Shown here: positions 33,530-38,117 of the stretch, piece by piece
Numbering within the stretch: position 1 is the first letter of the stretch
Layout: each line of letters begins with the position of its first letter
Assembly: GCA_031459385.1 (NCBI GenBank)
Contig: JAVKIP010000007.1
Span: 89,387-153,386, forward strand
Length of the DNA stretch: 64,000 nt
Direction: 5' to 3'
From: Candidatus Fervidifonticultor secundus
GTDB taxonomy: Bacteria > Sysuimicrobiota > Sysuimicrobiia > Sysuimicrobiales > Humicultoraceae
The notes under the pieces: generated by a model
The model's database searches: none
What the model was told of the DNA's origin: nothing
What the model saw: the letters and a program-made list of their open reading frames with translations, nothing else
Translations under genes and position numbers: made by a program

Positions 33530-33823
33530 ATGCAGATGCGACGATCCACCGACGACCCGTCGGGCAAGTGGATGGGCCTGGCCGTGTTCCTGCTGGGCGT
33601 GGTGTTCCTGACGATCGTCTTCATCATGGCGTACCGGGACGTGGTGGCCTCCGGGGTGCTGGGCAGGGTGGCCGCCGCCGGGCCGACGCCCGAGCCTGGC
33701 CCTGCCCTGGTGGCCCTGGCGATCAAGGGCGTCCTGCTGGTCGTCATGGCCGTCGCCGGCGGGGCGCTGGCCAACCGGGGCATCGGCCTGTACGCGGCCG
33801 CGCGTGGGTCCGATGAAAGCTGA
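33530..33823 (+). CDS. Small two-TM membrane protein
   Basis: Two hydrophobic helices; overlaps the ltaE start. Confidence 0.65.
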   Translation: MQMRRSTDDPSGKWMGLAVFLLGVVFLTIVFIMAYRDVVASGVLGRVAAAGPTPEPGPALVALAIKGVLLVVMAVAGGALANRGIGLYAAARGSDES

Positions 33824-34877
33824 GCTCTCCCGCTCGCAGGTGGCCGCGGGGCACGTCATCGACCTCCGCAGCGACACCGTCACCCAGCCGACGGACGCGA
33901 TGCGCGAGGCCATGGCCCGGGCCGAGGTCGGCGACGACGTGTACGGCGAGGACCCCACCGTCAACGCGCTGGAGGCGCTGGCAGCCTCGCGCACGGGCAA
34001 GGCCGCTGCGGTGTTCCTGCCCACGGCGACGATGGCCAACGCCGTGGCCGTGCTGAGCCAGACGCAGAGGGGGGACGAGGTGATCGTCGAGGCCGAGTCC
34101 CACCTCTACAACATGGAGGCGGGGGGCCTGAGCGCGCTGGCCGGCGCGATCCCGCGGCCGGTGGTCACGGAGCAGGGCGTCATCAGGGTCGCGCAGCTCG
34201 AGGCCGCGCTGCGCCCGCCCGACCCCCACCACGCGCCAGCCCGGCTGGTCGCGCTGGAGAACACCCACAACCGCCACGGCGGGACCGTCGCCACGCCCGA
34301 GGAGACCGACGACCTGGGGGCTGCGGCGCACCGCGCGGGGCTGCGGTTCCACCTGGACGGCGCGCGCCTGTTCAACGCGGCGGTCGCGCTGGGCGTGCGG
34401 GCCGCGCGGCTGGCCGCCGCCGCCGACACCGTCACGCTGTGCCTGTCCAAAGGGCTCTCGGCGCCCGCCGGCGCGCTGCTGTGCGGCGACGCCGAAGTCA
34501 TCGCCGTGGCCCGGCGCTTCCGCAAGATGCTGGGCGGGGGCATGCGCCAGGCCGGGGTCCTCGCCGCCGCGGGCATCGTGGCCCTGGAACAGATGGTCGA
34601 CCGGCTGGCCGACGATCACCGCACAGCCCGGGCGCTGGCCGAGGCGCTGGCGTCGGTCCCTGGCGTGGCCGTCGAGCTGCACCGGGTGCAGACCAACATC
34701 GTCCGCATCGAGGTGCCCGGGCGCGATGCGCGCCAGGTAGCCGCCCGGCTGCGCGAGCTGGGCGTGCGGGCCAGCGTGATCGGCGCCGCGCGCCTGCGGC
34801 TCGTGACCCACCGGCACGTGGGCCCCGACGACGTGCCGGTGGTGCGCGAGGCATTCCGTGCCGCGCTCGGGGGTTGA
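33813..34877 (+). CDS. ltaE: Low-specificity L-threonine aldolase
   Basis: IDLRSDTVT, GDDVYGEDPT, LENTHN, HLDGARLFNA, CLSKGL, GGGMRQAG. Confidence 0.94.
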   Translation: MKAELSRSQVAAGHVIDLRSDTVTQPTDAMREAMARAEVGDDVYGEDPTVNALEALAASRTGKAAAVFLPTATMANAVAVLSQTQRGDEVIVEAESHLYNMEAGGLSALAGAIPRPVVTEQGVIRVAQLEAALRPPDPHHAPARLVALENTHNRHGGTVATPEETDDLGAAAHRAGLRFHLDGARLFNAAVALGVRAARLAAAADTVTLCLSKGLSAPAGALLCGDAEVIAVARRFRKMLGGGMRQAGVLAAAGIVALEQMVDRLADDHRTARALAEALASVPGVAVELHRVQTNIVRIEVPGRDARQVAARLRELGVRASVIGAARLRLVTHRHVGPDDVPVVREAFRAALGG

Positions 34878-34958
34878 TGACTACGCCGGCGCGCCGCTGG
34901 GCATCTGCTCTTCGAGGGTCGTGCCGCCGCGCTTGGCCAGCCGCGCCTGGCCAAAAGA

Positions 34959-34983
34959 AGGAGATCGCGGCGCGGTCGCGAAT
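34959..34983 (+). promoter_or_regulatory. Sigma-H-like promoter AGGA-N17-GAAT
   Basis: GAAGGA gatcgcggcgcggtcgc GAATAT upstream of the micropeptide ORF. Confidence 0.5.
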
Positions 34984-35039
34984 ATACGCGCGCGAAGACG
35001 GGCGACCGTCACGCGCGCGTTCGAAAGGAGGCGACCTCG

Positions 35040-35084
35040 ATGGCCAAGAAGGCGAAGAAGGCGGCCAAGAAGAAGGGCAAGTAG
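35040..35084 (+). CDS. 14-aa lysine-rich micropeptide MAKKAKKAAKKKGK
   Basis: SD AAAGGAGG at 35024-35031, ATG, all Lys codons AAG, own promoter candidate and terminator. Confidence 0.7.
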   Translation: MAKKAKKAAKKKGK

Positions 35085-35109
35085 CTCGCTGGCTGCCTTG
35101 CGGATGGGC

Positions 35110-35150
35110 AAGGGAGCACTGCAGGCGCGGTGCTCTCTTCTTTATTGTTT
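35110..35150 (+). terminator. Intrinsic terminator after the micropeptide (convergent with mlaD)
   Basis: 13-bp stem AAGGGAGCACTGC/GCGGTGCTCTCTT, loop AGGC, T-rich tail. Confidence 0.8.
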
Positions 35151-35158
35151 GGGCGCGC

Positions 35159-36520
35159 TCAGAACCGGCGAAAGTACCCTAGCCCCAGGGTCGGCGACTG
35201 CAGGAGGTCGGTGGCGCGCAGGGTGATGCCGTAGTCGCGGTGGAGGAAGTAGGACGCGTAGAGGTTCAGGGTGAGGCGGTTGAGGTTGGAGAGGTCCAGG
35301 GAGTACACGGGGCCCGGCGGTGTCCCGTAGTCGACGCCAGCGCCGAGCTGCGAGTCCACCAGGCCGTAGCGCAGGAAGACCGGCGGGCGCTGCAGCCACT
35401 GCCCGACCTGCAGCCCGATCCGGTTCTCCATGCCCACGTCCCGCCAGGTGAAGATGTAGCGCCGCGGCGCGTCGGGGAGCAACGTGAACATGACGTCGTG
35501 GCCCAGCCGCGTCGTGTACCACAGCTCGTACTGGAGGCGGTAGCTGGTGCGCAGGTCGGGCAGCTCCAGCCGCTCCGGTACCACCCGGTTCACGCGCTCG
35601 ACGACCCGGTCGGCCCGCTGGATCAGCGCCCGGGCTTCCCCCACCGCCTGGCGCGCTTCGGTGACCGCCGCCTGCGCCTCGCCCAGCGCCACACGCACCT
35701 GCCGGATCTGCGGCTCGTTGATGACGCCCTGCAGGTCCCTGACCATGCGGTCGATGCCCTGCGCCGCGCGCTGCACGGCGGCCACCGTCTCGCGCACCTG
35801 CTGCGCGGTCTGGCCCCCCGCGGCCACGTCCGCCACCAGTGCCCGCATGTCGTGGGCCGCGGCGGCCAGGTCGTCGGCGGTGGCCCGCACGCCGGCCATC
35901 ACGGCGGGCACGTCTTGCCCGGCCATGCGCTCCAGGGTGCGCGTCATGCGGTCCACGGTGTCGGCGACCCGGCGCATGACCGCGGTCGCCTCGCGGGTGT
36001 TGCGCACCGCCTCGGCCAGCGCCTGGCCCAGCTCCGGATCGCCGATCAGCCGGTTGACGTGCCCGAGAGCGTCTTCCGCCTGGCGCGCGACGGCGATGAC
36101 TCGGGTGATGACGTCCTCGACCGTGAACGGGTCCAGCCCCTGGACGACGCTCTCGGGCGGCAGCGGTGGCGCAGTGGGCAACCCGGGCGAGATGGTGACG
36201 AACCGCTCGCCCAGCAGGCCCGTGGTGGCGATGGCGAAACGCGAACCCTGCGGGATGGCGAACCGGGACCGGATGCGCAGGACGAGCTCGGCCTGGCCCG
36301 ACGGCGTGAGCCCGATGGTGCGCACCTCCCCGATCTGCACCCCTGCCATCTGGACCGGCGCGCCCTCGACCATGCCGCCGGCGTTGCCGACCCGTAGGCG
36401 GATCACGTAACGGGGCTCGAACAGCTCGGTCACGCCCCCGCTCAGGAAGACCACGGCGCCCAGCAGCGCCGCCACGAAGAGGACGACGGCCACGAGCCCG
36501 ACTCTGGCTTCAGTGGTCAT
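35159..36520 (-). CDS. mlaD: MlaD/MCE protein with long coiled coil and beta-rich C-terminus
   Basis: MTTEARVG TM anchor, AGGMVEGAPVQMAGVQIGEV, GLLGERFVTI; ends LGLGYFRRF. Confidence 0.88.
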   Translation of the reverse strand: MTTEARVGLVAVVLFVAALLGAVVFLSGGVTELFEPRYVIRLRVGNAGGMVEGAPVQMAGVQIGEVRTIGLTPSGQAELVLRIRSRFAIPQGSRFAIATTGLLGERFVTISPGLPTAPPLPPESVVQGLDPFTVEDVITRVIAVARQAEDALGHVNRLIGDPELGQALAEAVRNTREATAVMRRVADTVDRMTRTLERMAGQDVPAVMAGVRATADDLAAAAHDMRALVADVAAGGQTAQQVRETVAAVQRAAQGIDRMVRDLQGVINEPQIRQVRVALGEAQAAVTEARQAVGEARALIQRADRVVERVNRVVPERLELPDLRTSYRLQYELWYTTRLGHDVMFTLLPDAPRRYIFTWRDVGMENRIGLQVGQWLQRPPVFLRYGLVDSQLGAGVDYGTPPGPVYSLDLSNLNRLTLNLYASYFLHRDYGITLRATDLLQSPTLGLGYFRRF

Positions 36521-37308
36521 GTGCGCACGACCTCGGCGCCCGACATGAGGAACCCCCGCACAACCGGATGGGACGACGCGCGGATCGCCGCGGGCGTGCC
36601 GGCGGCGATCAGGCGGCCGGCGTCCATCACAGCCAGCCTGTCGGCCAGCCGGAACGCGCTGGCCAGGTCGTGGGTGACGACGACGGCCGTGGTCCCCAGC
36701 TCGGCCCGCAGGCGCAGGATCAGCTCGTCGACGGCGCGGGCCGTGACCGGGTCCAGGCCGCCGGTGGGCTCGTCGTAGAGCAGGAGATCCGGCGCCAGCG
36801 CCAGCGCCCGGGCGATGCCCACGCGCTTGCGCATGCCCCCCGACAGCTGCGCGGGCATCAGCGACTCGGCGCCCGCGAGTCCGACCAGGGCCAGCAGCTC
36901 GCTGACCCGGGCGTCGACGGCGCGCGGGCTCATCCGGCGGTGGCGGCGGAGGGGGAAGGCCACGTTCTGCGCCACGGTCATCGAGTCGAACAGCGCGGCC
37001 GACTGGAAAACCACGCCCACCTGCAGGCGCAACGCGTTCAGCTCCTCCTCGGGCAGGGTGTGCACGGGCTGGCCGAAGACATAGACCAGGCCGCGGTCGG
37101 GCCGCAGCAGCCCCACCAGGTGCTTGAGGAGCACGCTCTTGCCACACCCGCTGGGGCCCATGATGACCTGCACCTGGCCCCGCGCCACCTCCAGGGTGAC
37201 GCCGGCCAGCGCCTGCGTGGCCCCGAATGCTTTCCAGACGTCCTGCACGCGCACCACCACGTCGCCGTCGGCGGGCTGTGGTGGCGTCGCGGGAGCCGCG
37301 CCGGCCAT
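36517..37308 (-). CDS. mlaF: MlaF-type ABC ATPase
   Basis: GPSGCGKS, VFQSAALFDSMTV, LSGGMRKRVGIARA, YDEPT, VTHD. Confidence 0.92.
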   Translation of the reverse strand: MAGAAPATPPQPADGDVVVRVQDVWKAFGATQALAGVTLEVARGQVQVIMGPSGCGKSVLLKHLVGLLRPDRGLVYVFGQPVHTLPEEELNALRLQVGVVFQSAALFDSMTVAQNVAFPLRRHRRMSPRAVDARVSELLALVGLAGAESLMPAQLSGGMRKRVGIARALALAPDLLLYDEPTGGLDPVTARAVDELILRLRAELGTTAVVVTHDLASAFRLADRLAVMDAGRLIAAGTPAAIRASSHPVVRGFLMSGAEVVRT

Positions 37309-37310
37309 CG

Positions 37311-38117
37311 CTACCTCACCTGGAAGAGGAGCTGGTTCAGGAAGTAGTTGACGGCCATGATCAGCACGATGGCGCTCACGACCGCGCCGGTGGCCGCGCG
37401 CCCCACCCCTTCCGCGCCGCCGCTGGCGTGCAGCCCGCGATACGCGCCCACGGCGGCGATGATGAGCCCGAAGAAGACCGCCTTCAGCAGGCCCGCGTAG
37501 AGATCCCACGTCCAGGTGAACTGCCGCAGCGAGGCCCAGAACGACCCGGCCGGCACGCCGGCGGCCACCGCCACGAACGAGCCCCCGACGGCGCCCACGA
37601 CCTCCGCGAACATCGTCAGCACGGGCAGGGCCACCGCAGCGGCCAGCAGCCGGGGCACCACCAGGAAGCGCACCGGGTCCGTGGCGAGCACCCGCAGCGC
37701 GTCCACCTGCTCGGTCACGGTCATCGTGCCCAGCTCGGCCGCGATCCCCGCGCCCACCCGGCCCGCCGTGACCATGGCCGTGAAGACCGGGCCGGCCTCT
37801 CGCGCCAGCGAGACGCCCACCAGGCCGCCCACGAAGCCCTGCGCCCCGAACTTGCGGAACACGCCCGCGGTCTGGTAGGCCAGGACCATGCCGGCGAACA
37901 GCCCGGTGACCAGCACGATGAAGATCGAGTCCCAGCCGATGCGTTTCAGCTGGACGATCGTCTCGCCGAGCTCCAGGTGGCCCCGCCGCACCCAGCGGAA
38001 GGCCTGCACCAGCATCCCTGCGGCGCGGCCGGTGTCGGCGAGCACCGCCAGGACCGCCCGGCCGGCGGCGGCCAGCCCCCCGGCCGACGGCTCGCGCGCG
38101 AGCGCCCCGTTGCTCAT
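37311..38117 (-). CDS. mlaE: MlaE-type ABC permease
   Basis: REAGPV, AGRVGAGIAAELGTMTVTEQVDAL, LVVPR, GAEGVGRA. Confidence 0.93.
   Translation of the reverse strand: MSNGALAREPSAGGLAAAGRAVLAVLADTGRAAGMLVQAFRWVRRGHLELGETIVQLKRIGWDSIFIVLVTGLFAGMVLAYQTAGVFRKFGAQGFVGGLVGVSLAREAGPVFTAMVTAGRVGAGIAAELGTMTVTEQVDALRVLATDPVRFLVVPRLLAAAVALPVLTMFAEVVGAVGGSFVAVAAGVPAGSFWASLRQFTWTWDLYAGLLKAVFFGLIIAAVGAYRGLHASGGAEGVGRAATGAVVSAIVLIMAVNYFLNQLLFQVR

Follow-up and report, generated by a model that had tools for sequence, protein, structure and literature searches.

The tiny polybasic proteins of the ribosome, such as bS22, bL37, Thx and eL41, have conserved Arg-rich sequences and occupy fixed rRNA pockets. Lysine- and alanine-rich proteins of the histone H1 type are known from bacteria as well, with chlamydial Hc1 and Hc2 and the tail of mycobacterial HupB as examples, and polyamines, among them spermidine and the long or branched forms of thermophiles, are small flexible polycations that are not made as proteins. 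A different kind of very short gene is represented by SR1/SR1P of Bacillus subtilis, a small protein-coding sRNA.

The micro-gene described here shares features with each of these systems and departs from each of them. It agrees with the tiny ribosomal proteins in size class, in charge and in being missed by gene callers, whereas the oligolysine family to which it belongs varies in length and residue order, is basic through Lys only and is encoded outside ribosomal operons. The H1-like proteins (HC2, PF07382) have in common with it an AKK-type low complexity, an excess of Lys over Arg and a presumed non-specific binding of polyanions; however, our peptide has 14 residues, is specified by its own gene instead of forming a tail, contains no globular or repeat domain, and its family matches HC2 only below threshold. 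Polyamines provide a functional analogy only, as small flexible polycations that neutralise nucleic-acid charge, with the difference that a gene-encoded, ribosome-made peptide has a level that a sigma factor could set. The micro-gene resembles SR1/SR1P in that its transcript would be short and independent, would end at a terminator of its own and would contain an ORF of very few codons, and an RNA role is possible for its paralogue (copy B, see below); its peptide, however, is much shorter and low in complexity. As read from the sequence, it is a real, unannotated and self-contained gene that has a second copy in the genome and is conserved throughout a class of hot-spring bacteria known only from uncultured members.

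The window, i.e. the whole stretch of 64,000 nucleotides that was analysed, stems from an assembly of 3.30 Mb with 71.9% G+C. The micro-gene (copy A; 34959-35151, + strand) is preceded by ltaE, a threonine aldolase gene outside the unit (33804-34877, + strand; Pfam PF01212, 335.9 bits, with a threonine aldolase match also from the ESM Atlas), and faces an mlaD-like gene (35159-36523, - strand; Pfam PF02470, 64 bits, residues 39-114), which is the last gene of mlaE-mlaF-mlaD and which served as the synteny anchor for copy A. The initial annotation had proposed a stand-alone transcription unit at this place, and promoter, leader hairpin, Shine-Dalgarno sequence, micro-ORF and terminator are indeed all present. 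The candidate promoter is SigH-type and spans 34959-34983, with a -35 element AGGA (34959-34962), a 17-nt spacer and a -10 element GAAT (34980-34983); transcription would then start at about 34990, a few bases 3' of GAAT. A two-tier hairpin is predicted for the 5' leader (34986-35020), formed by an outer 9-bp stem between ACGCGCGCG (34986-34994) and CGCGCGCGT (35012-35020) and an inner GACGG/CCGTC stem. This hairpin is followed by the strong Shine-Dalgarno sequence AAAGGAGG (35024-35031), 8 nt upstream of the ATG, and by a 45-nt ORF (35040-35084) with ATG at 35040, 14 codons and TAG at 35082-35084. Its translation is MAKKAKKAAKKKGK, in which eight of the 14 residues are Lys, every one of them encoded by AAG, and none is Arg. 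Hairpin, Shine-Dalgarno sequence and ORF thus lie where the initial annotation had placed them.

Between the stop codon and the terminator, sequence and fold indicate a small CCTTGC/GCAAGG hairpin (35096-35113), the CTTGC of which has an alternative partner in the GCAAG at the end of the ORF. The intrinsic terminator (35110-35151) was recovered by a terminator scan as a G+C-rich stem-loop followed by a U-tract, with 13 pairs at 35110-35139 just as had been claimed, the core GGGAGCACTGC...GGTGCTCTC and the T-rich tail CTTTATTGTT; the same scan gave three terminator-like sites in 2 kb, where 0.4 were expected. Folding of 34959-35160 beats that of shuffled sequences on both strands (z about -3.4). 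With 14 codons, the gene is missed by every standard gene caller, as the initial annotation had anticipated. The adjacent mlaE-mlaF-mlaD operon (35159-38117, - strand) ends in a MlaD of 454 aa in which the MlaD domain (residues 39-114) is followed by a long C-terminal extension, and the last residues of this protein, ...GLGYFRRF, resemble an outer-membrane beta-barrel ending. A trans-envelope MlaD, which the protein in the window resembles, has reportedly been found in the diderm firmicute Veillonella.

Since spurious ORFs are abundant in genomes of high G+C content, we considered whether the frame could have arisen by chance in an intergenic region whose only role is to hold the terminators of ltaE and mlaD. 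The probability of this is negligible, and the conservation of the frame detailed below refutes it. When all six frames of the genome were scanned for short ORFs (8-45 residues) in which Lys accounts for 35% or more of the residues, only two were returned, namely copy A and its paralogue. Lysine is scarce in this organism: in about 1,100 long frames with high GC3, Lys makes up 1.58% and Arg 9.24% of the proteome (K/R 0.17), and at this frequency of Lys the probability of at least eight Lys in 13 residues is 4.6e-12 per ORF. Variation of the frame in relatives, where it was found for the paralogue, is confined to third codon positions, which likewise speaks against a chance ORF.

To follow copy A through the class, the C-terminal 250 residues of the mlaD-like product were used as anchor and searched in 94 class genomes, which belong to one order and seven families. 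A match was present in 41 of the 94 genomes, and 30 loci were returned. At 21 of the 30, in families f1, f5 and f7, a Lys-rich micro-ORF with a Shine-Dalgarno sequence lies just past the mlaD-like stop on the opposite strand. The earlier statement that the ORF is not a leader peptide, given that the next gene is convergent, therefore holds for the window, where the mlaD-like gene is on the - strand, and for all 21 syntenic loci. The frames have 10, 11, 12, 13, 14, 20, 27, 29 or 30 codons and always possess a Shine-Dalgarno sequence (of GGAGG type upstream of every homologue found), a start and a stop. In family f1 the peptides have 10-14 residues, with one of 20 (MAKKKAKKKK, MAKKKAAKKKR, MKKKAAKKKGK, MAKKKAAKKKGK and MAKKAKKAKKKGK among them), and in families f5 and f7 they have 27-30 residues, e.g. 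MAAKKAAKKATAKKTSAKKTAKKAARKKR. All are Lys/Ala in character, and the order of Lys and Ala is shuffled between loci. Conservation of the reading frame in relatives, on which the initial annotation had staked its proposal, was thus observed. Genus g11 contributes two of these 21 loci, from G019 (unpublished) and its sister G012, which have the same peptide; no conclusion rests on G019.

The nine loci that lack copy A comprise seven of genus g4, one at a contig end (G001) and one in G003. In G001 the locus is cut by the contig end, and its copy A is located on another contig. In genus g4, ltaE and mlaD are convergent and abut without a spacer (L184-L189, L192), and copy B is kept in seven of eight genomes; judged from these junctions, this is a clean loss of the copy-A unit with retention of both neighbours. 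In genera g3 and g9 (L055 and L040), units that resemble copy A and share its promoter and terminator were found at a different location. The leaders of copy A are completely different between genera, each of them holding a hairpin at the same place, and within the genus of the window the leader stem is kept through a compensatory change (ACGCGT..ACGCGT versus ACACGT..ACGTGT). The core of the terminator stem and the T-rich tail recur in other genera. A subsurface metagenome contig of 2,432 nt, with 165 differing letters and 20 gaps, runs from ltaE across the micro-gene into mlaD (34389-36808 of the window), and at about 93% identity it represents a relative living outside hot springs.

The paralogue, copy B, is encoded on the - strand at G000:C59:56398-56442 (= L177:5999-6043), with a GTG start and a TAA stop, and specifies the same 14-residue peptide as copy A. 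Two Ala codons differ between the copies, and their leaders and terminators are unrelated. The stretch from the Shine-Dalgarno sequence to near the stop (35025-35083 of the window versus G000:C59:56399-56457) is 90% identical over 59 nt between unrelated flanks, and it is only in the genus of the window that the two peptides are identical; this likeness is probably the result of gene conversion between the paralogues. A search with the back-translated peptide pattern, allowing two mismatches, in the 34 genomes of the window's family (12 genera) gave 22 sites in 19 genomes and six genera, all with 0 mismatches, and the reversed pattern, used as a control in the same genomes, gave no sites. Of the 22, three represent copy A and belong without exception to the genus of the window; the remaining 19 represent copy B, and their frames comprise 10 distinct DNA sequences from six genera that encode a single peptide, with all six variable sites at third codon positions (AAG/AAA, GCN and TAA/TAG). 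Three further genera have the same copy-B leader with shortened or altered frames (MAKKAKKAKKKGK, MAKKAKKKKGK and MAKKATKKKAGGKKKGR).

The control region of copy B is conserved in its own right, with a TTGTG block upstream of AGGA-N18-GAAC; the latter was located 82-84 nt before the start by script in 17 of 19 loci and by alignment in the remaining two. A GACGGCA/TGCCGTC hairpin in the leader is conserved, the CATCTTCCARGAGAAGGAGGCGAGGACG leader is invariant, and so is a GGGCAAG...CTTGCCC stem, of which the last two codons form part and which is analogous to the CCTTGC/GCAAGG hairpin of copy A. The terminator of copy B has six pairs, with compensatory changes on both sides. Indels in the leader are of +1 and +2 (L017, L038, L033 and L027) and hence no multiples of three, which indicates that the frame begins at the GTG after the Shine-Dalgarno sequence and has no upstream extension. 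In the three genera examined, copy B is divergent to a gene for a protein with SLH, SPOR and NAGPA (phosphodiester glycosidase) domains (L177:5444-8134, + strand; L024:1677-3044, + strand; L032:1-1482, - strand) and lies near an acyl-CoA dehydrogenase gene, while the genes downstream of it differ from genus to genus. SLH, SPOR and NAGPA make an unusual combination of domains for a wall-binding protein.

The promoter candidate AGGA-N17-GAAT of the initial annotation has the form of a published SigH motif. In Sporomusa sphaeroides, the dRNA-seq account describes SigH promoters with -35 AGGA, -10 GAAT and spacers of 17-18 nt, lists 322 SigH start sites and notes a resemblance to the SigH promoters of B. 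subtilis and C. difficile (PMC12456013). Among the copy-A loci of the window's family, AGGA-N17-GAAT is located 76-99 nt before the start in 14 of 15, with differing spacers, and the 15th has AGGG. Five copy-A loci of family f5 have AGGA with GTAW instead of GAAT, and no SigH assignment is made for these. Genome-wide, AGGA-N17-GAAT occurs at 34 sites, compared with 3-11 for other spacings in the same codon phase, and AGGA-N17/18-GAATW occurs at 26 sites versus 1-5 in five order-2 Markov simulations. AGGA-N17-GAAC is also over-represented at that spacing (67 sites). The genome contains a SigH orthologue (G000:C11:57678-58316, - strand; L214:2679-3317) that exceeds three NCBIfam equivalog cut-offs (NF006148 with 367.8 bits against 208 and TIGR02859 with 351.1 bits against 294.8 among them). 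It lies directly downstream of rlmB, a gene order also known from Bacillus subtilis. The promoter of copy A is therefore, in our judgement, likely to be of SigH type, and the over-representation of AGGA-N17-GAAT and AGGA-N17-GAAC suggests that SigH has a regulon of considerable size here, in an organism that is not a firmicute.

Canonical promoters are in evidence elsewhere in the genome (TTGAC-N18/19-TAnnnT at 54 and 41 sites versus 2-13 at other spacings), and a consensus scan found no sigma-70-type (SigA-type) promoter at copy A. At copy B, TTGTGT-N19-TATATG is a possible housekeeping promoter with an off-optimal spacer. The copy-A promoter resembles the SigH promoters of Firmicutes in its AGGA and GAAT elements and 17-nt spacer, in a genome with a SigH orthologue; copy B differs from them in having GAAC, an 18-nt spacer and the conserved TTGTG block. 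SigH dependence is a prediction from sequence. The genes 3' of the other 33 AGGA-N17-GAAT sites are transporter- and enzyme-like and gave no functional clue. The initial annotation had also mentioned stationary phase; since SigH regulons can be broad, with 322 sites in Sporomusa (PMC12456013), the promoter type alone does not imply it. A link to sporulation was considered and dropped, as Spo0A has no match above cut-off in the genome.

We next turn to the question of whether peptide or RNA is the product. The micro-gene is very probably a genuine, protein-coding and translated gene, because changes within the frame are synonymous only, length changes are in frame, and Shine-Dalgarno sequence, start and stop persist even as the leaders of copy A drift. 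The product under selection is most likely the peptide, which both copies specify as MAKKAKKAAKKKGK in the genus of the window. Across six genera, the third codon positions of copy B vary more than its untranslated parts, and this suggests that a further constraint acts on the RNA. It could even be the RNA that matters most, as a small regulator or a molecule with two functions, in which the ORF mainly loads ribosomes, stabilises the RNA or provides a second function. Such a role would fit a transcript of small-RNA size, a copy-A terminator stem whose sequence is kept across genera, and a copy-B leader and 3' region that are invariant in 19 sequences from six genera. It would also fit the RNAalifold structure of copy B, in which GCCGUCC..CUUCC paired with GGAGG..GGACGGU hides the Shine-Dalgarno sequence and the GUG and competes with the GACGGCA/UGCCGUC hairpin, so that two mutually exclusive leader folds could act as a translational switch or thermosensor. 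However, the fold that hides the Shine-Dalgarno sequence has no covariation, its bases being invariant, and three of its pairs are broken in L027. The leaders of copy A are wholly divergent between genera while the Lys-rich frame persists, and the synonymous and in-frame changes noted above are those of a coding sequence. A search of Rfam 15 with the micro-gene gave no family at gathering threshold, and the sole match (ctRNA_pGA1, on the terminator) scored 17 bits against a gathering score of 45 (E 1.6). We therefore consider the RNA an improbable main product.

Two metatranscriptomic and metagenomic observations belong here. In one metatranscriptome run there was no assembled contig over 34826-35281, contigs being unable to show absence, and the same run had one identical contig of 199 nt inside mlaD. 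A metagenome scan with the leader and start pattern of copy B gave six DNA contigs and no transcript-like record. A CsrA-type GGA sponge was also tried as an explanation and rejected, because by eye the frame has AAGG but no GGA outside the Shine-Dalgarno sequence.

Alternative hairpins and a terminator (GCAAG / CTTGC / GCAAGG) downstream of a run of one and the same amino acid are reminiscent of an attenuator, and the eight Lys codons might in that case report the supply of charged tRNA-Lys or lysine and exert control in cis through translation. Such a sensor would need a gene to control, but there is no conserved co-oriented downstream gene: copy A faces a convergent gene, and the genes downstream of copy B vary by genus. 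The Rfam search also found no L-box or other riboswitch at the copy-A locus. We regard a translation-coupled sensor as very improbable.

The reading that we prefer is that of a separate gene for a 14-residue peptide that acts as a nucleic-acid polycation. It is the best explanation overall, and we put it forward tentatively, at somewhat less than even confidence. Transcription would proceed from the SigH-type promoter AGGA-N17-GAAT and yield an mRNA of about 160 nt with the leader hairpin, the strong Shine-Dalgarno sequence and the 14-codon frame, ending at the intrinsic terminator. Two genes with different control regions would contribute, copy A beside the mla operon and copy B beside the SLH-SPOR-NAGPA envelope gene, and the dose of the peptide would be set by an alternative sigma factor. 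The product would be a small, unstructured, Lys-only polycation of the cytoplasm that binds polyanions, most likely DNA or RNA, and that acts like a free histone H1-type tail or a gene-encoded polyamine, i.e. through charge neutralisation, compaction or stabilisation. A peptide of 14 residues may be quickly degraded unless it is bound.

The composition of the peptide bears on this proposal. The proteome has a K/R of 0.17, yet the peptide contains eight Lys and lacks Arg, and in the peptides of relatives Arg is confined to the last one or two positions; this indicates that lysine itself is selected and not mere positive charge. In the same genome bL34 has K4/R16 and bL36 has K7/R6, and the two HU proteins, of 91 and 92 residues and without tails, have K12-13/R9. 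As an argument for an H1-like role, composition carries little weight, because bL36 keeps Lys just as HU does. Family signals are faint as well: the only one for a 30-aa homologue of the class is a sub-threshold HC2 match (PF07382; 11.2 bits against a gathering threshold of 40), and a 107-aa look-alike scored 14.9 bits against the same threshold. A cytoplasmic role in nucleic-acid binding leaves unexplained that both loci flank envelope genes, and this counts against it.

That neighbourhood leads to the idea of a polycation directed to the envelope, where it would act on anionic envelope polymers or lipids. Across genera both paralogues keep their places beside envelope genes, copy A next to mla lipid transport and copy B next to the SLH-SPOR-NAGPA wall protein. 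The orientation of the genes argues otherwise, since copy A is convergent and copy B divergent to its neighbour, so that neither is co-transcribed with it, and genus g4 lost copy A yet kept the mla operon. The unit moreover encodes no signal peptide, hydrophobic stretch or exporter. We consider this role quite improbable.

Another candidate is a ribosome-bound micro-protein in a fixed rRNA site, in the manner of bS22, bL37, Thx and eL41. The peptide is very small and very basic, its gene has a strong Shine-Dalgarno sequence and is conserved class-wide, and at least one copy is always kept, all of which would suit a ribosomal protein. A length of 10-30 residues for copy A and a shuffled Lys/Ala order fit poorly to a fixed pocket, and this variation argues for action through bulk charge instead. 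The promoter is of an alternative-sigma type, though the genome uses canonical TTGACA-N17/18-TAnnnT, and the micro-gene lies outside any ribosomal operon. The Lys-only composition differs from that of the bL34 of the same genome. Searches of NCBIfam and Pfam with six homologues of 27-44 aa returned chance-level rows only and no relevant family, and a PDB sequence search with the 30-aa homologue gave 0 matches. A ribosomal micro-protein is thus unlikely, though we would place it slightly ahead of an RNA product. The evidence leans from a fixed ribosomal protein toward a loose H1-tail-like polycation, and that the peptide is such a loose nucleic-acid polycation remains a tentative assignment, held with just a shade less confidence than the overall reading.

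Finally, we looked for peptides of this kind beyond the class. A scan for GGAGG followed after 5-10 bases by M-A-K-K-A-K-K, with one genome per species, matched at least 120 stretches. Among the 120 matches listed, 80 are short complete ORFs (45 residues or fewer, 35% Lys or more), and 43 of these share a type of 28-35 residues with the core AKSAVKKTAKKT that occurs in Bradyrhizobium, Afipia, Tardiphaga, Rhodopseudomonas and uncultured Alphaproteobacteria; a further nine matches are longer AKK-repeat proteins (46-150 residues). The same matches form a continuum in other phyla from ORFs of 13 aa to AKK-repeat proteins of 84-144 aa, and none of those listed is from the window's own lineage. The longer look-alikes (84-144 aa) add a Pro/Ala-rich, acidic C-terminus. 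The flanks of one Bradyrhizobium look-alike were uninformative, and a search of 5.8 billion proteins with a 44-aa look-alike gave 320 candidates, none of them scoring. A literature search, at the level of abstracts and in main texts for the peptide strings, found no description of such a gene and no relevant main text with the strings. Homology between phyla cannot be demonstrated for peptides of such low complexity.

A broader possibility, which we regard as doubtful though less so than the ribosomal alternative, is that oligolysine micro-genes form a widespread, unannotated class of 'gene-encoded polyamines' of 10-30 residues that are dosed by sigma factors (here SigH) and tune the charge of nucleoid, RNA or ribosome, with two differently wired copies in this class of hot-spring bacteria that, in the genus of the window, give the same peptide, as though one coding segment had been copied over the other. 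At 14 codons, the gene described here is among the shortest stand-alone genes that are clearly conserved at the protein level, and it has gone unannotated. That a lineage in which almost all lysine has been replaced by arginine keeps a Lys-only peptide in two copies argues for a lysine-specific role, and the SigH-type promoter offers a concrete experimental handle on it. Given the look-alikes in many phyla, a function found here could apply widely, including in cultured Bradyrhizobium.
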